In this document: in pieces, positions 12,610-48,305 of the stretch
How the letters are laid out: every line of letters begins with the position of its first letter
How positions within the stretch are numbered: position 1 is the stretch's first letter
From: a virus
Lineage: Duplodnaviria; Caudoviricetes
Length of the DNA: 64,000 nt
Strand: one strand, 5' to 3'
Virus record (IMG/VR): IMGVR_UViG_3300030376_005461
Location: 2,850-66,849 of that record
The notes under the pieces: generated by a model
The model's database searches: none
The model's input: the letters and a program-made list of their open reading frames with translations, nothing else
Told to the model about the DNA's origin: nothing
Translations under genes and position numbers: made by a program

Positions 12610-12684
12610 TATTTTGTAAAACGTCGAAATTATATAATTAATTTAGACTAATGCTTATAAGGCAAGCAATTGTGGTTTATTACA

Positions 12685-14142
12685 ATGGGGAAAGAAAAAT
12701 CACCTAGGTTAACAGGCGGACAAGAGATAGTCGAAAAATATGCGAAAAGTAACTCATTTTCTACAGAAATGGAGTTTGCACGTTTTTTGCACGAACTTAA
12801 CCCAAGTAAAAGTATTTCTGCTTGGAGAGGTAGCATTCAAAGATGGCGCAAAAAAGACCCGAACAATACATTTAGAAAATTAGATGTTGTAGACGAAAGT
12901 AACTTAGTTTCATCAGTAACTAATATTAGTGTATATTATGATAAAACTTCTGATATATACATTTCTAAGTTAAACAACGAACTTACCGCAGTAAAAGGTA
13001 ACGTACATAGACAGATGAGACACGCTTATTCTCAAGACGGGAGAAACATGACTATAGAAGAAATGAGTCGAGAGTTTAGTTTATCCCCTGTTTGGCTGAA
13101 CCAATACATTAAAGTTAATGGTTGGTCACATAATATGGATATTTTTACCAATGCTGAAATAGAATCAACTCCCGAAGACACACTAGTAAATACTTTGTTA
13201 GAAAGTAAAAGACAACTAGTAATAGAAAAGGCTAACAAAAAATATTGGAAAAAGGTTATAAAAGACGCAGAAACATTAACTAACTTAGAAGAAGCGTGGG
13301 CTAATGAATTTAAAGAATTGTTACCAAAACAACTTAAGGCTAATAATAGGGTTAAGCACATCAAAAAAGCAAAAGTAAAACCATATGCGGTTGTTTTATC
13401 CCCTACTGACTTACATTACGGTAAAGGTGGTTGGATAAACGAAGTAGGAGAAAAATATACATTAGATGAGGCTAGAAACAGACTTATTACTCGTACAGAA
13501 GATTTAATACACAGGCTATCCGGTAAACCCGAAAAAATTATTGTGGCTACAGGAAGCGATTGGTTTCACGTAGATAATGATTTAGGTTCTACTACAAAGG
13601 GTACTATGCAGGATAGAAGCGCTTCACCTGCCCAAATATTAATGGATGGGTGTAAACTAGCGAGAGAGCATATTGATTTGCTCAGACAAGTATGTCCTGT
13701 AGAAGTCGTATTTATGCGTGGTAATCACGATAGGCACTCATCACTAGCGTTAATGATGTATTTAGACGCAGTATATGAAAAAGCAAAAGACGTAAGCGTA
13801 ATTGTTAGCCCTAAAACTAGACAATACATTTCTTGGGGTAATAACCTATTAGGCTTTACTCATGGTGATGGGGTAAGGGGGGTTGATTTACCTGCTATTA
13901 TGGCAACAGAAGAAAGAGAGTCATGGGGTAAATGCGAACACCACACATGGTTTCACGGACATTTACATCATAGAAAACTTACTGAAACTTCGGGTGTTGT
14001 TATAGTACAATTACCTAGTTTGGCCGGCGCTGATAGATGGCATTATCATAAAGGTTATGTTATGGCTAGGCCGGGCTTATCCGCTCATCTTTTAGATAAA
14101 CAGTTAGGTTTAATAGGCAATCTCTTTTCTCCGGTGGTATAA
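12685..14142 (+). CDS. Calcineurin-like metallophosphoesterase with long N-terminal domain
   Basis: Motifs TDLHYG, GSDWFH, RGNHD, FTHGD, GHLHH. ATG 12685 preferred over the track TTG at 12670. Confidence 0.85.
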   Translation: MGKEKSPRLTGGQEIVEKYAKSNSFSTEMEFARFLHELNPSKSISAWRGSIQRWRKKDPNNTFRKLDVVDESNLVSSVTNISVYYDKTSDIYISKLNNELTAVKGNVHRQMRHAYSQDGRNMTIEEMSREFSLSPVWLNQYIKVNGWSHNMDIFTNAEIESTPEDTLVNTLLESKRQLVIEKANKKYWKKVIKDAETLTNLEEAWANEFKELLPKQLKANNRVKHIKKAKVKPYAVVLSPTDLHYGKGGWINEVGEKYTLDEARNRLITRTEDLIHRLSGKPEKIIVATGSDWFHVDNDLGSTTKGTMQDRSASPAQILMDGCKLAREHIDLLRQVCPVEVVFMRGNHDRHSSLALMMYLDAVYEKAKDVSVIVSPKTRQYISWGNNLLGFTHGDGVRGVDLPAIMATEERESWGKCEHHTWFHGHLHHRKLTETSGVVIVQLPSLAGADRWHYHKGYVMARPGLSAHLLDKQLGLIGNLFSPVV

Positions 14143-15647
14143 TGGCAAATCTCAATACAGATTTTGCGATGGCAAGGAGTAAGAAAGATGTTTCATATTT
14201 TTATAGGTGGCTTGGCTATACATGGGGAGAGCATATCGGCGAATGGATGGATATGTATGGCAAAAGGGGAGATGCTCAAGTTCATAGGGTTTGTGTTATT
14301 GCACCCCGTGACCACAGTAAATCTACTACTTTGCGTGTAAAACTACTACATCAAGCCTTATTTGACAAATGGCGAAACAAACCGTTTACGTGTTGGTTAT
14401 TTTCGGCTAGTAAAGATTTAGCAGTTAGAAGATTAGAAGAAATACGTGACGATATGAAACGTCACCCACAATTGTCTAGATACTTACATAAGAAAAGAGG
14501 TAATAAACTAGAGTTACATTTTACAAATGGTGCGTGGATTCGTGCTACATCTGTAGGTGCGGCTATTCGTGGTGAGCATCCGGCCTGTATTGCTTTTGAC
14601 GACGTACTAGACGATTCGGGAGAAATGAACTACGAAGCGATTAGGAATTGGTTTAGGAAGAAAATTACGCCTATGTTGTCGCCGGGAACGTCTATATTTG
14701 TTGTTGGTACTCCTATGAGTATGATGGACTTATATCATACTGAAATGCTACAGAATAAACAATGGAAATCTAAAAGTTGGGCTAGTGTTAAAAATTGGGA
14801 TGAGTACAAATCAAACCCCGATACAATTAAACCTATAGAGTTATGGCCGGAGTTTAGACCAATTGACTTCTTACTAGAACAAAAAGACGCTATGGGAGAA
14901 CTTTCTTTCATTCAAGAGTATATGTGTAAAGTTATTGATGATGAGGCATCTGTTTACCCACGTAACTTAACAAGGGCTAACCTAAACATGGATGCTATCT
15001 TTGAGCAAGAAAAGTTAAAAGACGGAAAATATGTAGTGGGTTTTGACCCCGCACATGGTTTAGGTCAAGATTATTCTGTAATGGTATGCTTAAAACAAGA
15101 TTCTGAGGGCTATGTACACTTAGTTAATCTATGGAGAAGAAATGACTTCCCACCGGACAAGCAAGCAGATATGATGATAGAGTGGAATAAGCGCTATGGT
15201 ACTCCTGCTTTTGCAGTTGAAGCAGTAGGTTTCCAACAGATGTATGAAAGTCTATTGGCACAAAAGGGTGCGGTTATAGATTACCGTGAAAGTAAAGTTA
15301 GTAATCGTACTTTAAAGCAAGGGTTATTAAATCGTATGAGAGTATGGTTTGAAAGAGAAATGATTGTTATGCCATACGGTAATGATTTTACTAGAAAGCA
15401 AGTTAATATACTTTTAGAGGAATTAGAAACTCACGCATGGAAAAACGGACTAATAGTAGATTTAGGAAGACATAACGATATTGCTATGGCGTTTGCTCAT
15501 GCTCTAGACCAATTTACATATAAAACTCCCGATACTCCTGTTATTATGAAAACTATGAAAAACGGGGAGTGGACAGGCGGTAGAGTATCTAGACCACAAA
15601 GAAGTGGTGGGTCGCTTGGCGGTAGAGTAATAAGGAGAAGTAGATAA
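14142..15647 (+). CDS. terL: Terminase large subunit
   Basis: Walker A-like APRDHSKST, IRGEHPACIAFDD (Walker B), coupling motif VGTP, RNase H domain GFDPA...HNDIAMA. Confidence 0.95.
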   Translation: MANLNTDFAMARSKKDVSYFYRWLGYTWGEHIGEWMDMYGKRGDAQVHRVCVIAPRDHSKSTTLRVKLLHQALFDKWRNKPFTCWLFSASKDLAVRRLEEIRDDMKRHPQLSRYLHKKRGNKLELHFTNGAWIRATSVGAAIRGEHPACIAFDDVLDDSGEMNYEAIRNWFRKKITPMLSPGTSIFVVGTPMSMMDLYHTEMLQNKQWKSKSWASVKNWDEYKSNPDTIKPIELWPEFRPIDFLLEQKDAMGELSFIQEYMCKVIDDEASVYPRNLTRANLNMDAIFEQEKLKDGKYVVGFDPAHGLGQDYSVMVCLKQDSEGYVHLVNLWRRNDFPPDKQADMMIEWNKRYGTPAFAVEAVGFQQMYESLLAQKGAVIDYRESKVSNRTLKQGLLNRMRVWFEREMIVMPYGNDFTRKQVNILLEELETHAWKNGLIVDLGRHNDIAMAFAHALDQFTYKTPDTPVIMKTMKNGEWTGGRVSRPQRSGGSLGGRVIRRSR

Positions 15648-16169: not shown

Positions 16170-17033
16170 ATGACGCATAGAGAGACAGATAAAGCAACGC
16201 TAGAGATTGAGATAGATGATATAGATAGGGTGCATAGAATACATAAAGAATTATGTAATACCCCTATTGTACAAATCAAGTCAAAGAGAAATCAAATTAA
16301 TAAAAAATTACAAAATTCAGCAATAGATTTGACTAATTTAGTACCATCACTACATGAAGAAACACTGAATACACTCAGAATTAACGGATTAATGCCTATA
16401 ATTCAACCTAGCAAATCAGCAGTAAGTCATTATTCATATACTCAGCAATCAAAAGAATCATATGAGAAAGTAATGAAAAACACAAAAGCAATCAATAATC
16501 AAACTAAAAGATATATTTGTCCTAAATGCGATAAAATAGGTTGTTTTGTTAGAAGACATATTCTAGATAATGGTGAAATGGGATTCAAAAACGATACTAG
16601 GGGCGGCCTATGTGGTCAAACTGTTACTCTTGATGAAGCACTCAGTATTAAAAATACTAATATTTGGTTTGATAATTCTAACTTACCAATGTTTAACCAC
16701 AAAATTACAACAATAGAAATTTCATACATAAATAATTCATGGGTAATTAGTCCAACATATAATCAACCAAATAAACAATTATTTCAATATACAGGCATGA
16801 AAGGAGTTTCAGCAGTAGGTAACGAAAAACAAATCGCACCACAATATAGACGTAACTTAACAATTAACAAAAAGCAAAAACAAGTTTATCACAAATTCGC
16901 TGTTGCTTTCTTTGGTGATTTCTACGCCTTAGTTATGATAAATCATCAACATAATGCTGATGCAAAAATAACATTCGATTATCCACCAGTAGGAATTATT
17001 AACAACATCGGAATAAAAGGGGGTGAACAATAA
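16170..17033 (+). CDS. Hypothetical protein with CxxC motif
   Basis: 287 aa ORF with its own TATA (TTTAAGTA 16105-16112) and AGGAG RBS; contains ICPKCDKIGC. Confidence 0.6.
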   Translation: MTHRETDKATLEIEIDDIDRVHRIHKELCNTPIVQIKSKRNQINKKLQNSAIDLTNLVPSLHEETLNTLRINGLMPIIQPSKSAVSHYSYTQQSKESYEKVMKNTKAINNQTKRYICPKCDKIGCFVRRHILDNGEMGFKNDTRGGLCGQTVTLDEALSIKNTNIWFDNSNLPMFNHKITTIEISYINNSWVISPTYNQPNKQLFQYTGMKGVSAVGNEKQIAPQYRRNLTINKKQKQVYHKFAVAFFGDFYALVMINHQHNADAKITFDYPPVGIINNIGIKGGEQ

Positions 17034-17114
17034 ATGAAGAATCTAAAATATGATAAATTAGTTATCAGAACAGAAAGGGAAGATTGCATCTTTGAAATAT
17101 GGGAGTTGGCTTAA
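17034..17114 (+). CDS. 26-aa microprotein
   Basis: Not in track. TAAATG coupling at both ends: MKNLKYDKLVIRTEREDCIFEIWELA*. Confidence 0.5.
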   Translation: MKNLKYDKLVIRTEREDCIFEIWELA

Positions 17115-17198
17115 ATGAAATCTATCTTTGATGAGCCTTGTCCTATATGTGGATTTAGTATAGAAAGAGGGTGGATTTGCGAAATCTGCAACCAGTAA
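17115..17198 (+). CDS. 27-aa CPxCG zinc-finger microprotein
   Basis: Not in track. MKSIFDEPCPICGFSIERGWICEICNQ* has two Cys knuckles, as in archaeal CPxCG microproteins. Confidence 0.65.
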   Translation: MKSIFDEPCPICGFSIERGWICEICNQ

Positions 17199-17207
17199 AA
17201 AAAGGAA

Positions 17208-17225
17208 GGGGGGAGAAATCCCCCC
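17208..17225. terminator. G6-AGAAAT-C6 hairpin between convergent genes
   Basis: GGGGGG AGAAAT CCCCCC lies between the plus stop at 17198 and the minus stop at 17240, flanked by A- and T-tracts. Confidence 0.55.
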
Positions 17226-17239
17226 AACCAATTTTTATA

Positions 17240-17407
17240 TTACCACATAATTACGGTTTGACATAATTGGCATTTTTCGCCAACATCCATATTTTTCCAT
17301 TCTGTTTTTCTGTACCCGTAATATACTGCGGCACAACATGGACAACAACCATCAATTATTTTTTTCATCATTTCGTCTTTTTTCATTTGTTCATATTTAT
17401 TATTCAT
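17240..17407 (-). CDS. Cassette 1: Cys-rich (zinc-finger-like) microprotein
   Basis: Start moved to ATG 17407 (MNNKYEQ...CCPCC...CQLC). TATA-like TTATAA on minus at about 17470-17475. Confidence 0.6.
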   Translation of the reverse strand: MNNKYEQMKKDEMMKKIIDGCCPCCAAVYYGYRKTEWKNMDVGEKCQLCQTVIMW

Positions 17408-17663
17408 AGGTTTCCCTCTTTCCCCCTGTCTCCATTGAAACACGGTTAACGGTACATAGGGGGGTCTAGTTATAATACCTTTGGTTAAATGCTCATATTA
17501 GCCCTACGAAGTAATCAATTACATTAAGTGTATTTTTTACACTTACTTTATTTTTTACAGTAAGGTCAGCCCTACGAAGTAATGCTGTAATTTTGTAGGC
17601 ATATATTAGAGAGAGAAAAATCTTAGAGAGATTTCATATTTTTATGTTACCACTAAAGAGAGA

Positions 17664-17703
17664 CTTAATCGAGGGCGTAAGTAGCCCCCGACTAAGTTTT
17701 ACG
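17664..17703 (-). other. Conserved-loop hairpin, copy A
   Basis: Minus strand CGUAAAA-CUUAGUCGGGGG-CUACUUACG-CCCUCGAUUAAG: 12-bp stem, fully paired with two G.U only on this strand. Confidence 0.75.
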
Positions 17704-17722
17704 TTTAGTACTACGAAGAAAA

Positions 17723-17866
17723 TTATTCGATATGATGATGGTCTATATCTTCAATTATTTTTGCTACGATTAATTCTTTGATTGTTATATCAAAATTGTC
17801 TCTTATGTCTTCTTCAGTAATTTCTATATCTGCGGTCATACTAATTTGCATATCAATTGTTGTCAT
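17723..17866 (-). CDS. Cassette 2: 47-aa acidic microprotein
   Basis: Not in track. MTTIDMQISMTADIEITEEDIRDNFDITIKELIVAKIIEDIDHHHIE*; GGGGGTGAG RBS; TATA-like TTCATAAG upstream. Confidence 0.65.
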   Translation of the reverse strand: MTTIDMQISMTADIEITEEDIRDNFDITIKELIVAKIIEDIDHHHIE

Positions 17867-18080
17867 TTCGTTTCTCACCCCCTGTTCTAGTGAACTAACG
17901 TGTGAGTATCTGCTTATGAATGTATGGGTCTTATGTGTATCTGTTGCATCATGAGTCCTACGAAGTTTTAGTCCTACGAAGTTTTGTTTCTTTATAGTAG
18001 GCCTACGAAGTAGAGAGAGATTTGCGTAGAGATTATAAAGAGAGATTTTATTTATTTATATTATCAATTTTAGAGAGAGA

Positions 18081-18119
18081 TTAGAGAGAGGCGTAAGTAG
18101 CCCCTCTCTAATTTTACGC
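18081..18119 (-). other. Conserved-loop hairpin, copy B
   Basis: Minus strand GCGUAAAA-UUAGAGAGGGG-CUACUUACG-CCUCUCUCUAA: 11-bp stem with one G.U and the same 9-nt loop as copy A. Confidence 0.75.
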
Positions 18120-18150
18120 ATTCCGAACTAATTTCAACTAAGGATAATAT

Positions 18151-18354
18151 TTATCCGTTAATTGTAACTTTTTTATAATTGCTTACACCATTTCTGAATC
18201 CAGCAAATTTCCAACCGTTTTTAACACATACGTGTCTTTTATTGGTCGCAAATTCTGCTTCAACAGGGTAGCCCCACATATTGAAGTCATCCGGTTTGAT
18301 GTCTTTAGCAGTATATAATTTTCTACTTATTGTGTAGTTAATTTTTCCTCTCAT
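18151..18354 (-). CDS. Cassette 3: 67-aa basic hypothetical protein
   Basis: Track ORF with AGGAGA RBS; TATA-like TTCATATA at about 18430-18437 on minus. Confidence 0.65.
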   Translation of the reverse strand: MRGKINYTISRKLYTAKDIKPDDFNMWGYPVEAEFATNKRHVCVKNGWKFAGFRNGVSNYKKVTING

Positions 18355-18620
18355 GTTTATTTCTCCTAATTTCGCTTTTCACGTTTACGTCCGCTCGGCT
18401 TCTCGGATATTTGTGGGTTATACTATAAGTATATGAACCTTTCGATTTTAGGCCTACGAAGTAATAATACACCCGAAGGGGAAAGCATTATAAGGGTGCA
18501 TCTCGGTGCAATAACCCCCGGCAACCACTCCTAGCCCTACGAAGTAAAATCCGGTTAGTCCTACGAAGTTTTTTAAAAAAAACGTAGAGATAACCATAGA
18601 GATTAGCCCTACGAATTATA

Positions 18621-18782
18621 TTAGATTTTTCCGAAATCCCATCCGCAATCTCCATCAATATTAACATAATCACCGATACTATTAATTAAATGATTACATA
18701 AAATATGAATTATTTCATTTTTATTTTTCGCTTTATATTTTCTTAATTCTGTTTCTTCTATTTCTATTATTATTTCGTACAT
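18621..18782 (-). CDS. Cassette 4: 53-aa microprotein
   Basis: Not in track. MYEIIIEIEETELRKYKAKIKNEIIHILCNHLINSIGDYVNIDGDCGWDFGKI*; AAGGAGA RBS; TATA TTTAAGTA at 18890-18897 on minus. Confidence 0.65.
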   Translation of the reverse strand: MYEIIIEIEETELRKYKAKNKNEIIHILCNHLINSIGDYVNIDGDCGWDFGKI

Positions 18783-19049
18783 TTTTTATCTCCTTAATTT
18801 TTGAATATTTTTGAGCCGAATCCAATATTGTTTTCCTTCATGTGTCGTGTCCAATCTGTTCCGGCTCTATATGTCGGTTAGTATATAGGTACTTAAACAT
18901 TTGCTTTGTAGCCCTACGAAGTTACTTAGTGTAATTTCTGCACCGTTTAGCCCTACGAAGTTTTTTAATATATGCGTAGACCTATAGAGATTAGAGAAAA
19001 ATTCAAAGAGAGATTTTCATAAATTTATTCATGTATGAATATTAGAGAT

Positions 19050-19472
19050 TTAGAGAAAAATTTCTTTCATTGTTTTAAAATCAAAAATCGCTTCTTGATT
19101 ATACATTTTACCCATAGTTAATGCGTGTTTTAAATCTCGATATACTGAAACTATATCAATAATTAACGTATTTCCATTTTTTATCCATCCGCCAAAAGTG
19201 GGGTTTAATGGTGCTAATAATGGATTTTGTTCTTCAATTACATCAAAAAAAGCCATAGCCGCACTAATACCATGATTTAATATTGTCCTCAATTCTTCAT
19301 TATTTGAAAATTCTCGAACCCAAAAATGGCCGACATCATTCGCAACGGAATAACGACCATATGTCATATAATTTTCATTTTTTAGAAGTACATTTTTATT
19401 AGTGATAAATGTAAATCCGTCGCTCTCTAATAATTCATTATACATAATAGGTAAGTCCGCCCATTCGCTCAT
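19050..19472 (-). CDS. Cassette 5: 140-aa hypothetical protein (GGW...NQEAIFD motif)
   Basis: Track ORF with GTGATT RBS; TATA TTATAAGC at about 19494-19501 on minus. Confidence 0.7.
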   Translation of the reverse strand: MSEWADLPIMYNELLESDGFTFITNKNVLLKNENYMTYGRYSVANDVGHFWVREFSNNEELRTILNHGISAAMAFFDVIEEQNPLLAPLNPTFGGWIKNGNTLIIDIVSVYRDLKHALTMGKMYNQEAIFDFKTMKEIFL

Positions 19473-20341
19473 AATTTAATCACATGAAGCATCGCTTATA
19501 ACCTTTTCCTTTTTAGGTCTACGAAGTTTATATGACTCCCGTAGGGCGAAAGTATATATACCCCCATCCCATCTCAGATTAGGCAAAGTGTACATGGGGA
19601 TATAGGCCTACGAAGTTACCTTCTTTTTTTGATTCCTCTAGAGAGACTAAAGACCTATATAAACCTATCCGCTCCCTGCATCACTCATGCGTCAAGGCAT
19701 AGTGCTTATATATGTTTCGGCTTCCTGCATCATTCGCTTATAAGGCCTACGAAGTTTTGTATTAATTCGTAGGACTGTTATAGAGAGATTTGATAGAGAC
19801 TTCGTAGGGCTAGAAAATTAGGTTTTGACAGGCTCGCAGTACAACGGTTTTGAAAAAAGGGCTTTGTGGCCGTGCTTTTTGGTTGATTTTTCGATTTCTT
19901 TGAAAAGTGTGATACTGCTACGATGCAATTTTTACACTTAATTTATAAAGAAACAGGCCTACGAAGTTAAAACAGGCTTATATACTTTTCGGTGGTGTTT
20001 TTTGGTGTAGAAAACTCACCGAGTGTATCTAGAAGCACTAAGGTTTTTTGACTACACTAGATGAGAAAAAGAACTTCGTAGGAGTAGGTAAGATTAAATA
20101 TAGAATTACTTTTTCGCCAAAAATAAAATAGGCCAGTCCTACGAAGTATAGTGATACAAAAAAACACAAAGTTTATGAAGGCCTACGAAGTTCGCTCAGT
20201 TAGCATTTTTTATATAGTAGATGTAGTCCTACGAAGTACACTGGGGCGGTTCGGGTCAAGTTATCCCTTATATATGTTACCCCTACGTGTTCAACAATTG
20301 CTCACGACATATTGATATAGTAGAGGGTGTAATTTTAGGTT

Positions 20342-20629
20342 ATGAGAGGAAGCAAACAGATAACAGAAGACATGAAGCATAAGATATTAGAGTATCATAT
20401 TAGGAGACAAAAAGTCTATTCTAATACTGATGTTGAAATAGTTAACGATTTATATGATGAAGTAAGAGAATTTGTCATTGAAGTCGGTGGTTATGAATGG
20501 AATTATCATAGAGTTTGTGATAATGAAGATGAAGCAATATTAGAAAAAGAACATTTGAATAGAACTGGTTGTGGTCAATTCAGAAATTTCAAGATACTAA
20601 ATTTATACACAATTTGGGAGAGGATTTAG
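20342..20629 (+). CDS. Early hypothetical protein (first of the plus-strand early arm)
   Basis: 95 aa ORF, tightly coupled to the next gene. Confidence 0.6.
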   Translation: MRGSKQITEDMKHKILEYHIRRQKVYSNTDVEIVNDLYDEVREFVIEVGGYEWNYHRVCDNEDEAILEKEHLNRTGCGQFRNFKILNLYTIWERI

Positions 20630-38199: not shown

Positions 38200-39135
38200 G
38201 TGAGCGAAATGAGTGAAGTTTGGGCATTAAAGCATCGTCCTACAATGGACGAGATAGTAGGCCAAGATGATATTATAAATGCTATAGGTAATGGAATGCA
38301 ACATATGGTATTCTATAGTCCACAAGCAGGTACAGGTAAAACAAGTTTGGCTCATGCTTTAGCAAAGAGACATGATATGACACTACATATCTTTAACGCT
38401 AGTAGTAAAAAGACTAGAGGTATAGAGTTTGTAGAGGAAGAATTGTTACCTATGACTAGGACAGGTAATTGGAAGCAAATATTTTTATTAGACGAGGCAG
38501 ACCAATTGACACCTGCCGCACAATCGGCACTAAAAGGAGTGATAGAAAATGCACACGGTTGGTTTATCTTAACTTGTAATGACTTATCTAAAGTAAGTGT
38601 GTGGTTACAATCAAGATGTAGAGTGTGCAAATTTAACCCAATAGCATATGGGGATATGATGAGTAGGTTACTCACTATACAAGAAGAAGAGAAATTTAAA
38701 ACCCCACTTAATTATTTAGATTTAATATGTAAAAAGTATGAAGGGGATTTAAGAGGTGCTATAAATTGCCTACAAGCATATTATTATAGTGCAGAAAAAG
38801 AATCTTTTATTTATTCTTTGGTAGATACAAGTTTTGATATATCGACCTTTACTAACTTAGTTTACCCTAAAAACAAAGCATCAATACAGGACAATCTGTC
38901 AGTAGTCATGGATTTATTCAAAGGTCATGATGTCAAAGATAGTATTAGATTTATATTTAAGGAATTAATAACTTCATCATTAAGTGATGAACAGAAAAAA
39001 AGTCTTATCAATGCGTCTGTTATATCTGAAAGAGATATGATAGATGGTGTTGAAGAACAAATTATACTCGCTAATTATATACGGTTGTGCTTACATCGAG
39101 AACTTTATAACCGTAATAGTATTAGCACAAGATAA
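38200..39135 (+). CDS. rfcS: Replication factor C (clamp loader) small subunit
   Basis: WALKHRP, VGQDDI, AGTGKTS, FNAS, LDEADQLT, FILTCN, SRC and GDLRGAIN are all canonical RFC boxes. Confidence 0.93.
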   Translation: MSEMSEVWALKHRPTMDEIVGQDDIINAIGNGMQHMVFYSPQAGTGKTSLAHALAKRHDMTLHIFNASSKKTRGIEFVEEELLPMTRTGNWKQIFLLDEADQLTPAAQSALKGVIENAHGWFILTCNDLSKVSVWLQSRCRVCKFNPIAYGDMMSRLLTIQEEEKFKTPLNYLDLICKKYEGDLRGAINCLQAYYYSAEKESFIYSLVDTSFDISTFTNLVYPKNKASIQDNLSVVMDLFKGHDVKDSIRFIFKELITSSLSDEQKKSLINASVISERDMIDGVEEQIILANYIRLCLHRELYNRNSISTR

Positions 39136-42523: not shown

Positions 42524-44734
42524 ATGATAATAGAAAAAAGCAAACAACGTAACATTGTCGTAAGATATAGAGACAACAATGATAAAAGAGTAGTCATTAC
42601 TGATAGAGGTCATTGGCCTTATTGTTACGTTAAAAGTAGTGATGCTCATATGGTAAATGCCATAAGAAAGGATGCCGGATATAAAGGCATTTTAGGAGAA
42701 GACTTAGTTAAGATAGTTGTAGCGGATACTTTTTGCCTTAAAGAAATAAGGGATTTAGGTATCCCTACTTGGGAAGCAAACATACCTTACACTAATAGAG
42801 TAATGGTTGACAGAATAAATGCAGGACATAAGCGTATCCCTAATTACAATCACCGAGTATGGTATATGGATTGCGAATGGAATCCCAAAACTAATGCTAT
42901 GAGAATAATAGTTTTTTATGACTCCTATACAGAAAAAGAATATGTATATTTTGTAGACCACAACTTAGCCGAAGCAGAATCATTTAGTAAATATGGTGAT
43001 TATGAATACGAAAATCTAGCATGGGGATTTCCTACAGAAAAAGAAATGCTAGATAAGTTCTTAACAATTATTAATGAACAAGACCCCGATGTTATTACTG
43101 GTTGGTATGTAACAGGAGCAGACATTAAAACTATTATAGAAAGGTGTAACAAAGTAGGATTAAGCCCTAATCGTTTGTCTCCTATGAATAAGATACGCTA
43201 TGAGTTTGGCGATTGGTCGCAACCTATTGTCGGTAGAAACTGTATAGATTTAATGATAGGCTTCTCTAAAATATGGGAACTTAAGAATGGAAAACTACCT
43301 TCTTACAAACTAGACGATGTATCATGGGAAGTTTTAGGAGAAAAGAAAATTGAATTACCCGATGGACACGACACATATCTTACTGATTTACCTTTGTATC
43401 TACATTATGCTAGGCAAGACGTAAGATTACTACCTAAATTAGACTCTAAAGTAAATGCTATAGAGTACTACTTAGCATTACAACACTTGGTTCAATGTGA
43501 TATACGGTCTACGCCTTTTATCACAAAGATGTTTACTAATCTTGCTTTGTTAGATAATAACTTTCCTATGAAAATACCTACAAAACCTCAATTCGACAAG
43601 GTGGATTATGAGGGTGCAAATGTTATGGAAGTAGAAGCCGGTTTATACGAGAACGTAGGCATCTTAGATGTCAAGGCTATGTACCACAGTAACGCATCCC
43701 TTTACAATATATCTTGGGATACCTTAGATGAAGATGGTCAAGATTGTGGTAACGGTACTAAGTTTAACCTTGAAAGTAAAGGGTTGTTAGTAAACCAAAT
43801 GGACTATATGACAGAACTAAGAAATAAATTCAAGGCACTTATGAAATCAGATAAAGAGAACTATGATAAGTGGGATACTATGCAATTTGCTTGTAAATCT
43901 TTAGTAGCATCTATGTATGGTGTGGCGGGAGATGCTAAGTACGGTCTGTACAATCCCGACATAGCCGCCGCAATCACATATACTTCTAGAGAAACACTAA
44001 ACACTCTTAAAAAAGAAGCGGAAGCCTATGGTTTCAAAGTAATATATGGTCATACAGATAGCGTATTCGTTGTCATACCATCACCTCAAGAGGGCGTAGA
44101 TGCACTTAAGAAAATAAATGCTAATATGTCTCCTATAGAGACTGAGTTTGAGAAATGGTGTTCGTCTATGATTCTTATGGCTAAGAACAGGTATGCGGGT
44201 AATGTTTTGTGGACGGATGGTAATTACCATGACCCTAAATTATATGTAAAAGGTATAGAAATGAAACAATCAAGAATGCCGCAGGTTATGAAACAATGTA
44301 TGGAAGATGTTATAGGCGGAATCCTATCCTCTAATAGTGAGGAAGTAGTTACTGATAAACTAAGTAGTATTATCTTAAAAGTAATTAACAAAGAAGTAGA
44401 CGCTAATGATTTATGTATGAAAGGTAAATTAGATAGGGATTTAAGTGAGTACAAAGTATTGTCCGGCACAAGTGCGGGTGCGGCATGGGCTAACGAATAC
44501 TTAGGTAAGGGCTATAGAAGCGGCTCTTATTTTAAAGTAACTATCAATAGTGATGGTAAATACATAGCGTTTGATGACCCTAGTGATATAGAGGGTTTGT
44601 ATGAGATTGGTTATAAAAACCTAGTAGAAAGATTCATTATTAAAAAGGTAGAGCCTTACTACACTATGATGAAGTGGGATATGCAACCTTTAGATAATGC
44701 TTTAAGAGGCCTAAGTGGTCTAAATTGGCTATAA
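42524..44734 (+). CDS. polB: Family B DNA polymerase
   Basis: Exo motifs DCEW, TGWY..GAD, YARQD; polymerase motifs DVKAMYHS, KSLVASMYG, YGHTDS, KNRYAG, KGIE. Confidence 0.95.
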   Translation: MIIEKSKQRNIVVRYRDNNDKRVVITDRGHWPYCYVKSSDAHMVNAIRKDAGYKGILGEDLVKIVVADTFCLKEIRDLGIPTWEANIPYTNRVMVDRINAGHKRIPNYNHRVWYMDCEWNPKTNAMRIIVFYDSYTEKEYVYFVDHNLAEAESFSKYGDYEYENLAWGFPTEKEMLDKFLTIINEQDPDVITGWYVTGADIKTIIERCNKVGLSPNRLSPMNKIRYEFGDWSQPIVGRNCIDLMIGFSKIWELKNGKLPSYKLDDVSWEVLGEKKIELPDGHDTYLTDLPLYLHYARQDVRLLPKLDSKVNAIEYYLALQHLVQCDIRSTPFITKMFTNLALLDNNFPMKIPTKPQFDKVDYEGANVMEVEAGLYENVGILDVKAMYHSNASLYNISWDTLDEDGQDCGNGTKFNLESKGLLVNQMDYMTELRNKFKALMKSDKENYDKWDTMQFACKSLVASMYGVAGDAKYGLYNPDIAAAITYTSRETLNTLKKEAEAYGFKVIYGHTDSVFVVIPSPQEGVDALKKINANMSPIETEFEKWCSSMILMAKNRYAGNVLWTDGNYHDPKLYVKGIEMKQSRMPQVMKQCMEDVIGGILSSNSEEVVTDKLSSIILKVINKEVDANDLCMKGKLDRDLSEYKVLSGTSAGAAWANEYLGKGYRSGSYFKVTINSDGKYIAFDDPSDIEGLYEIGYKNLVERFIIKKVEPYYTMMKWDMQPLDNALRGLSGLNWL

Positions 44735-47579: not shown

Positions 47580-48305
47580 GTGCTTCTAGTAGACGATAGA
47601 GAGAACCCTAAAGTAATTAACAAAATACTTATGAGAATGGGCGATGCTAAACAAGATGAGAAAGGTTTGGCTAAAGTAATTAGAATGAAAAGTGCTGATT
47701 ATAGAATGGGTACTTGGGGTATAGAAGCAAAAGAAATCAATGATTTGTATAGGTCTATTATGGGGTATGGTAGAAGTCGTACAATTGTAGCACAACTCAA
47801 AGATTTACAAGATGCGGTAGAGAATCCTTTCTTAGTAGTGTACGGTACTAAGTTTAAACCTTACATACCTAGTGGTAGACCAACGGCTAGATTAATGGCT
47901 ATAGAGAATGCTAGAATGAAAAAAGTAACTCAGCAATTTAAGATGACTTTCTACCAAAGATTCCCTAAGATAAGATATATGGAATTAAACAGTATGGATG
48001 ATTTTGTAGATTGGTTAATTATTAACCATACACAAATTAGTTTAAAGGAAAAAATAACATTCAAAGATTTACCACAAGATATCCAAACAGAACTAAAAAA
48101 TAATGACTACGACCCTAAAGTTATAGTTCTTAGTTCTCTTAGCGGTATTACTCCTAAACACGCACAAGACTTGTTAAATAAGTTTGGTAGCATACCTAAG
48201 ATACTACACTCAAGAACTACACAAAAATCTCTTATGGAGATAGAAGGTATTGGTAGAGAAAAGGCTAAACGTATTTTAAGCCTAAGAGAAACTTATCAAG
48301 AGTAA
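47580..48305 (+). CDS. ERCC4/XPF (Hef-like) nuclease with HhH repeats
   Basis: LLVDDRE, ADY, IEAK, then LSGITPKHA and IEGIGREKA helix-hairpin-helix motifs. Confidence 0.85.
   Translation: MLLVDDRENPKVINKILMRMGDAKQDEKGLAKVIRMKSADYRMGTWGIEAKEINDLYRSIMGYGRSRTIVAQLKDLQDAVENPFLVVYGTKFKPYIPSGRPTARLMAIENARMKKVTQQFKMTFYQRFPKIRYMELNSMDDFVDWLIINHTQISLKEKITFKDLPQDIQTELKNNDYDPKVIVLSSLSGITPKHAQDLLNKFGSIPKILHSRTTQKSLMEIEGIGREKAKRILSLRETYQE

Follow-up and report, generated by a model that had tools for sequence, protein, structure and literature searches.

Why would a virus keep one hairpin loop unchanged at two places of its genome while the stem that carries it varies? The question arises from a 64,000-nt stretch of a tailed-virus genome (the window, whose numbering is used below unless a locus is named), in which the original prediction placed two minus-strand hairpins with identical loops and different stems. 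Both are present where they were predicted, each with a short 5' flank and downstream of a small gene:

17663..17697, minus strand: hairpin A, a 14-bp stem that includes the loop-closing C-G pair and two G.U pairs; loop CTACTTACG at 17684-17676, inside which 7 nt are open
17698..17704, minus strand: 5' flank of copy A, ACGTAAA, of which CGTAAA is invariant in the alignment
17723..17878, minus strand: ORFan gene that precedes hairpin A, listed at 51 aa, with a likely ATG at 17866; its homologue in the relative L017 is 68% identical
18080..18112, minus strand: hairpin B, a 13-bp stem with one G.U pair; loop CTACTTACG at 18100-18092
18113..18118, minus strand: 5' flank of copy B, CGTAAA, invariant in the alignment
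18151..18354, minus strand: ORFan gene upstream of hairpin B, 67 aa; homologues in L017 (47% identity) and in another relative, L251 (60% identity)

Two stable hairpins with one loop

Folded as RNA, hairpin A reaches -26.9 kcal/mol (z -5.01) and hairpin B -20.3 kcal/mol (z -4.26), and none of 200 shuffles folded as well. The three non-Watson-Crick pairs of the two stems are, as had been claimed, all G.U on the minus strand and A.C on the plus strand. In both hairpins the 5' arm is G-rich and the 3' arm pyrimidine; the 3' arm of hairpin B doubles as a TCTCTCT box. The exact 9-mer CTACTTACG occurs in the window only at the two hairpins. A covariance model of the family, which scores hairpin A at 66.8 bits and hairpin B at 67.2 bits, found copies A and B only when it was run against the whole 66.8-kb (66,849-bp) virus record.

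Both hairpins follow a stop codon on their own strand (17725-17723 before A, 18153-18151 before B). The hairpin starts 25 nt past the stop for A and 38 nt past it for B, and the CGTAAA-type motif 18 and 32 nt past it; the predicted distance of 20-30 nt therefore holds for copy A, while copy B lies slightly farther away. A CU-rich tract stands 3' of both copies, as expected from the UCUCUC tract noticed earlier. The tails that directly follow copies A and B (CUCUCUUUAG and CUCUCUCUAAAA, respectively) are mixed C/U and not clean U-runs; runs of U5-U6 are found in some relatives. In a simple terminator scan copy A passed and copy B failed. Single-stranded DNA of the same strand likewise folds stably. 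Thus, the choice between RNA and ssDNA has to be settled by context and not by folding energy.

A small family with covarying stems

Is the pairing conserved in relatives? Among the matches listed, an IMG/VR scan with a shared 15-mer gave 15 chance matches and one true relative, L017, and loop-based IMG/VR patterns gave mostly chance matches, an unrelated conserved coding sequence (M-R-K-V-Q-I-T-A-T-Y-A...) being one of them, with L017 and L090 as the only true relatives. Scans of metagenomes based on the decamers described below gave L090, L199, L222 and L251 among the matches listed; the decamer-pair scan otherwise returned mostly unrelated coding repeats of the G-N-F-V-G-N-Y type and other repeat elements, and it found no relatives in the GTDB genomes. 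The covariance model, run over 69 and then 35 loci, detected members only inside one small clade, and outside this clade the CTACTTACG family was absent from all collections searched. The clade is shallow, the terminases of L017 and L090 being at least 90% identical.

The check that had been proposed, a search for homologues with a look at covariation, yielded a family on at least five related metagenomic contigs, with six distinct sequences and five unrelated stems, in which pairing is kept by compensatory changes. All six sequences have the loop CTACTTACG, the closing G-C pairs and the 5' CGTAAA, and about 17 nucleotides are invariant around the variable helix. Paired cells amount to 92% in the family alignment and to 69.5% in shuffles, and 7 of the 13 pairs show compensatory change on both sides. 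When the partner was slid by one column as a control, pairing fell to 52-57%, and all slid controls were much lower than the true register. RNAalifold, run independently, gave the same helix of 12 pairs, 7 of them with compensatory changes.

Single comparisons illustrate how the stems change. Hairpin A (winA) and its orthologue L251_A differ by one substitution, which turns U-A into U.G, and winA and L017_3 differ by two double compensatory changes plus one pair. Four of the five stem types form a helix free of bulges. A bulged T is seen in one type and a C.A mismatch in one, and their positions differ. Five paralogues compared had loops of 100% identity and stem arms of 40-46% identity. On the sense strand, nine hairpins contain 16 G.U pairs and one A.C mismatch, with the reverse pattern on the opposite strand, and the sense-strand fold is the more stable one in eight of these nine. 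Family hairpins are always co-directional with the small ORFs, lie 25-40 nt past their stop codons and have a C/U tract behind them. The original prediction of a structured element that folds as a single strand and is under selection is thus borne out, for the gene-sense strand, by the covariation and by the conserved loop of the relatives. The remark that it belongs to no recognised family also stands: Rfam gave no match in the whole window at gathering scores, and at E up to 5 only two irrelevant weak matches in 17000-20400.

Relatives also carry hairpins with other loops, which keep the same overall design. A second type, found after a 117- or 163-aa cassette gene, has the flank ACGTAAAAGATT and the loop GTTCGCTG:

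L199:506-552, plus strand: hairpin of the second type
L090:11781-11824, minus strand: its orthologue

These two orthologues differ at three stem pairs, all of them compensated. In relatives, ACGTAAA also stands 5' of hairpins with the loops GTTCGCTG, GAAA and AAAGAATC. Because these hairpins have no TTACG in the loop, the flank is not explained by pairing with the loop. The orthologue of copy B in L017 and L090 is degenerate, with a plain ATTT loop and the flank ACGAAAA. We also inspected a wider family of 37 loci with terminases 62-93% identical. Where the terminase is more distant, G-run hairpins stand before T or TC tracts and their loops are unrelated; the CTACTTACG loop occurred at none of these terminase-relative loci. 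Thus, the combination of hairpin and pyrimidine tract is general in this group, and the invariant loop is a speciality of one small clade.

The hairpin opens a conserved module between exchanged genes

Segment alignment identifies the hairpin as the first block of an inter-ORF module of about 280 nt. In gene direction, the module consists of the stop codon, often a degenerate decamer, ACGTAAA, the hairpin, a TCTCTCT box and an AT-rich spacer, followed by a second TC box, CCTAC, two decamers, a TATA-like box and a leader with a Shine-Dalgarno sequence; the hairpin lies 150-200 nt upstream of the TATA-like box. In the window, the blocks around the two hairpins are:

17706..17718, minus strand: degenerate decamer-like motif CTTCGTAGTACTA between stop and flank of copy A, where homology between genomes resumes
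17605..17662, minus strand: pyrimidine boxes (TCTCTCT/TTTTCTCTCT) with an AT-rich spacer, 3' of hairpin A; candidate for a termination tract of archaeal type
17503..17580, minus strand: two ACTTCGTAGG decamers around a GTGTAAAAAATACAC palindrome, upstream of the next cassette's TATA-like box, in the module that starts with hairpin A
18012..18079, minus strand: pyrimidine boxes and AT-rich spacer after hairpin B
17957..18011, minus strand: three ACTTCGTAGG decamers, in the module that starts with hairpin B

The modules are part of a 3-kb array on the minus strand, located between the terminase block and the replication arm and containing five or six small ORFs. The hairpin is present in some cassettes only, and many are without it. 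Decamers of the form ACTTCGTAGG(N)CTA occur in 21 copies in the array, 18 of them in gene orientation, against 2.8 expected, together with TCTCTCT boxes and GTGTA...TACAC palindromes. The small ORFs of the array had no match in Pfam or PHROG, and protein family searches with the cassette ORFs and most replication-arm ORFs returned nothing useful.

What is conserved between genomes, the genes or the modules? Comparing window 17240-19472 with L017, L090, L199 and L251, we found the modules 90-99% identical between genomes and the ORFs between them unrelated or 34-68% identical at the protein level. In two swap comparisons, L017 with L199 and the window with L251, flanks of 90-99% identity enclose ORFs that are unrelated or 34% identical: (i) the gene before the winA-type hairpin codes for 51 aa in the window, and an unrelated gene of 84 aa stands there in L251; and (ii) the L017_3-type hairpin is preceded in L017 by a gene of 47 aa and in L199 by one of 52 aa, which shows 34% identity to its homologue in the window and no significant match to its L017 counterpart. 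Homology is lost close to the start codon and returns directly after the stop, 10-25 nt ahead of the hairpin. The exchanged segment coincides almost exactly with the reading frame from start to stop. Cassette content also differs among L017, L090 and L199. Since the modules are conserved and the ORFs swapped, the hairpin stays with the downstream module and not with the gene. Non-coding regulatory modules are here far better conserved than the genes they flank.

The virus and its probable host

The record is that of a tailed virus, with genes for terminase, portal, tape measure and tail fibre. Its replication genes are of archaeal type:

12670-14142, 38200-39135, 42524-44734 and 47580-48305: archaeal-type replication set and phosphoesterase

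PolB is closest to the PolB of Thermococcales (1e-33, against about 5e-12 for RB69 and E. coli Pol II), and the clamp loader is closest to the archaeal RFC small subunit (2e-29, against 3e-8 for T4 gp44). An ERCC4-HhH nuclease is encoded, and the phosphoesterase gene immediately precedes that of the terminase, an arrangement described for magrovirus group C. A scan for sigma-70-like sites gave fewer in the sequence than in shuffles (69 against 83.9). Together, these features indicate that the host is probably a marine archaeon. PolB relatives with 55-88% identity are numerous in marine assemblies, on contigs of 65-78 kb. The magrovirus paper makes no mention of motifs such as those described here.

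Proposed role of the hairpin

What is the function of the hairpin? We consider it reasonably probable that it is an RNA 3'-end or terminator element in a promoter/terminator module, with a probable reader of its loop. When the upstream gene is transcribed, the hairpin would come to lie in the 3' untranslated part of the message and fold there. It would then act with the pyrimidine boxes to define or protect the 3' end of that message and to insulate the next cassette. On this model the stem would be free to change as long as pairing is kept, and the loop CTACTTACG and the flank would be held constant. We infer from its gene-sense context that the element acts in RNA and not in ssDNA. Because loop and flank are constant and the arms covary freely, a sequence-specific reader of viral or host origin is probable. 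Of the functions that had been listed for the element, a terminator or processing signal or a 3'-exonuclease block would fit best; the attC-like site is not supported by the comparison made below.

Term-seq in four archaea has shown terminators that are U-tracts without a preceding hairpin, read by aCPSF1 (PMC8716108). If the host is archaeal, a hairpin is thus unexpected as a need of termination, and the present one may block 3' exonucleases or serve as a regulatory site instead of being the terminator proper. A more specific version of the proposal, that CTACTTACG and ACGTAAA form the docking site of a dedicated factor setting or controlling the 3' ends of early orphan-gene messages, is possible and we hold it only tentatively. 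If true, an archaeal virus would have a 3' stem-loop system that is read by its sequence, much as the histone stem-loop is read by SLBP, working in a domain whose terminators are thought to be hairpin-independent and inside modules that guide ORF-precise swapping. The hairpin would be a new, clade-specific structured RNA motif outside Rfam, in an abundant uncultivated group of marine viruses with archaeal-type replication genes. Since the family comprises six sequences from one shallow clade and its function is inferred, we regard the finding as solid and its reach as moderate. It raises the question of what a hairpin does at archaeal mRNA 3' ends, and why its loop is constant and its stem free.

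Comparison with known systems

The loops of intrinsic terminators are normally not conserved in sequence. Bacterial intrinsic terminators and the present hairpins share a GC-rich transcript hairpin that tolerates G.U pairs, a pyrimidine- or U-rich tail and a position after stop codons. Unlike in the bacterial case, the tails here are mixed C/U and the replication proteins are of archaeal type. Stem-loops at mRNA 3' ends that are read by proteins include the histone mRNA stem-loop with SLBP, chloroplast 3' inverted repeats and the hairpin rule of mimivirus; in the histone stem-loop, the protein reads the conserved loop together with the 5' flank. As in those systems, the hairpin here lies just past the stop, where it would mark or protect the mRNA 3' end. 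It has no homology to them, and its stems are twice as long and unconserved.

The hairpin modules as a whole resemble two kinds of viral cassette. PeSLs (promoter-early stem-loops) are composite terminator/promoter cassettes of the T4-type phages RB49, phi1, PST and nt-1. Their stem-loops, often polyG followed by polyC, have been shown to terminate transcription and to serve as recombination points (PMC2839356, PMC4122927); they can act as terminator or attenuator, and recombination between the copies shuffles orphan genes and forms excised mini-circles. Similar to PeSLs, the modules described here are intergenic and lie between small orphan genes of a hyperplastic region. Their arms are likewise a G-run and a C/pyrimidine-run, with the stem-loop placed before the next gene's promoter, and their paralogous copies are conserved enough for crossover where genomes differ by ORF insertion, loss and replacement.

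The differences from PeSLs are several. The promoter part is TATA-like with oriented ACTTCGTAGG decamers and not of the sigma-70 consensus seen in the host-type early promoters of PeSLs, which would make the module a functional analogue with another promoter class. It spans about 280 nt, with the hairpin 150-200 nt before the TATA-like box, whereas the stem-loop of a PeSL lies within or next to the -35/-10 boxes. An invariant loop and a 5' ACGTAAA combined with covarying stems do not appear in the available text of the PeSL descriptions. Finally, the host is probably archaeal here, and terminator activity is putative. With these qualifications, the PeSL idea of mobile regulatory cassettes may be extended to a putative archaeal virus.

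The second resemblance is to HGTV-1, a haloarchaeal tailed virus in which a TATA-box-plus-inverted-repeat motif precedes most left-arm ORFs (Sencilo et al. 2013, as reported in PMC3950731). By description, which is the sole level of this comparison, the likeness lies in an archaeal tailed virus with a repeated intergenic TATA-like box and inverted repeat, for which transcription control and genome shuffling were proposed. Megablast against phage records gave no match, so there is no sequence relation to HGTV-1.

Alternative explanations

Could the conserved letters be read in double-stranded DNA? CGTAA and TTACG would then be inverted half-sites, 17-18 bp apart, of a protein-binding site at the 3' border of the cassette. 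Its binder could be the decamer-binding protein, through GGNCTA, which the decamer also contains in its 3' half, or another viral regulator, for example a polar roadblock. The spacing between CGTAA and TTACG does stay at 17-18 nt despite stems of 11-13 bp, because the length of the A-run compensates that of the stem; the region is full of oriented decamers that look like protein sites (18 of 21 on one strand), and the degenerate copy of L017 and L090 has lost the loop and the T of CGTAA together. We nevertheless regard such a site as unlikely: it leaves the perfect covarying pairing of variable arms and the G.U asymmetry of one strand unexplained, ACGTAAA also precedes hairpins whose loops are without TTACG, and the GGNCTA overlap is within chance by an estimate of about 2-7%. 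A hairpin of generic terminator type could also do without a loop reader, if loop and flank were inherited through recent duplication or short-patch gene conversion. All copies do come from the one shallow clade, neighbouring blocks of the module are likewise conserved among paralogues, and more distant relatives have unrelated loops. Against this, arms that have diverged down to 40-46% identity enclose 9 loop positions and adjoin 6 flank positions without a single change in five paralogues, and conversion tracts would be expected to bring the adjacent arms along; an origin of this kind thus seems improbable to us.

The ORF-precise exchange itself suggests a folded ssDNA recombination site of the attC, IS200/IS605 or REP kind as its driver. 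Core boxes of attC sites (R''-L'' and L'-R', with R' being GTTRRRY) lie at the base of the fold, and extrahelical bases mark the strand that is recombined. The hairpin shares with attC a strand-specific fold at the cassette 3' end and a conserved structure of variable sequence; its ssDNA fold is stable, and ORFs are exchanged between near-identical flanks, with homology resuming 10-25 nt before it. However, it is the loop and ACGTAAA that are conserved here, with stem bases free to vary, and we found neither R/L core boxes nor conserved bulged or extrahelical bases. The cassettes are not promoterless, having promoter-like regions of their own; many are without a hairpin, and the hairpin stays with the downstream module instead of moving with the ORF. 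The complete record is also without a tyrosine or serine recombinase (integrase or resolvase) and without a Y1 transposase: in the whole 66.8 kb there was no match to PF00589 (tyrosine recombinase/integron integrase; controls positive) or to PF01797 (Y1 HUH transposase, TnpA/RAYT). The attC-like site of the original prediction is thus not supported, and we consider any ssDNA recombination site very improbable. A separate functional RNA, whether a small regulatory RNA that displays its loop or a self-cleaving or processing motif that uses flank and loop, would suit some 17 invariant nucleotides around a variable helix, and is in our view very unlikely. The element has no promoter of its own and a stop codon only 18-32 nt from the motif, Rfam holds no matching ribozyme or other RNA even at E up to 5, sites complementary to the loop are at chance level in the genome (21 near-matches against 14.7 expected), and pairing between loop and flank is sterically implausible.

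This last point also bears on the pseudoknot that had been suggested for the hairpin. The underlying complementarity of CGTAA and loop TTACG is real, and the pseudoknot is not a plausible consequence of it. In an H-type pseudoknot the connecting loops must be long enough to cross the grooves of both stems; here a linker of 1-2 nt would have to span a stem of 11-13 bp, and 0 nt separate TTACG from the 3' arm, which leaves nothing to span the 5-bp stem. Two further likenesses of the loop were examined and set aside. Mimicry of a tRNA anticodon loop fails at position 33, which is A and not U, and the agreement of the 7-nt loop UACUUAC with the 5' end of U1 snRNA is a coincidence for a tailed prokaryotic virus.

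Decamers and other elements of the array

The ACTTCGTAGG decamer proved to be one lineage's version of a family-wide oriented repeat, other versions being TTTGTAGCA, TTTGTAACC, TTTGTAGATAA and TTTGTAGTA, among others (studied in window 17500-20240 and at loci L330, L349, L355, L357 and L345-L348). In terminase relatives, lineage-specific decamers reach 20-68 copies per locus of 10-21 kb, and in some they line up in tandem like iterons (at about 14,070-14,150 of locus L357, in its own coordinates). Oriented, lineage-specific decamers of this kind suggest a co-evolving DNA-binding protein. The palindrome GTGTAAAAAATACAC(T)TAGTG (window 17530-17545 and relatives) is conserved between the two decamers of several modules and is operator-like. 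Two apparent motifs were dropped: GTAAGT/TAAGTA words downstream of some hairpins are inconsistent between modules, and the likeness of loop and flank to the decamer (CGTA, GGNCTA) is within chance, ACGTAAA being unchanged where the repeat motif of relatives differs.

At its downstream end, the minus-strand array is separated from a convergent 287-aa gene by a GGGGGGATTTCTCCCCCC hairpin (17206-17225) flanked by A and T runs, which is conserved in L251 and looks like a bidirectional terminator. The last cassette gene (17240-17407, minus strand) codes for a Cys-rich peptide of 55 aa (CCPCC...CQLC) that may be a zinc ribbon, and the same slot in L251 holds an unrelated 82-aa CxxC protein. On an unrelated contig, L193 (Ga0190286_1000496), we observed 15 copies of a small palindromic unit, TTTCYCCACTTCGTAGGTGGAAA, with the same decamer in its loop, which represents a separate dispersed hairpin repeat.
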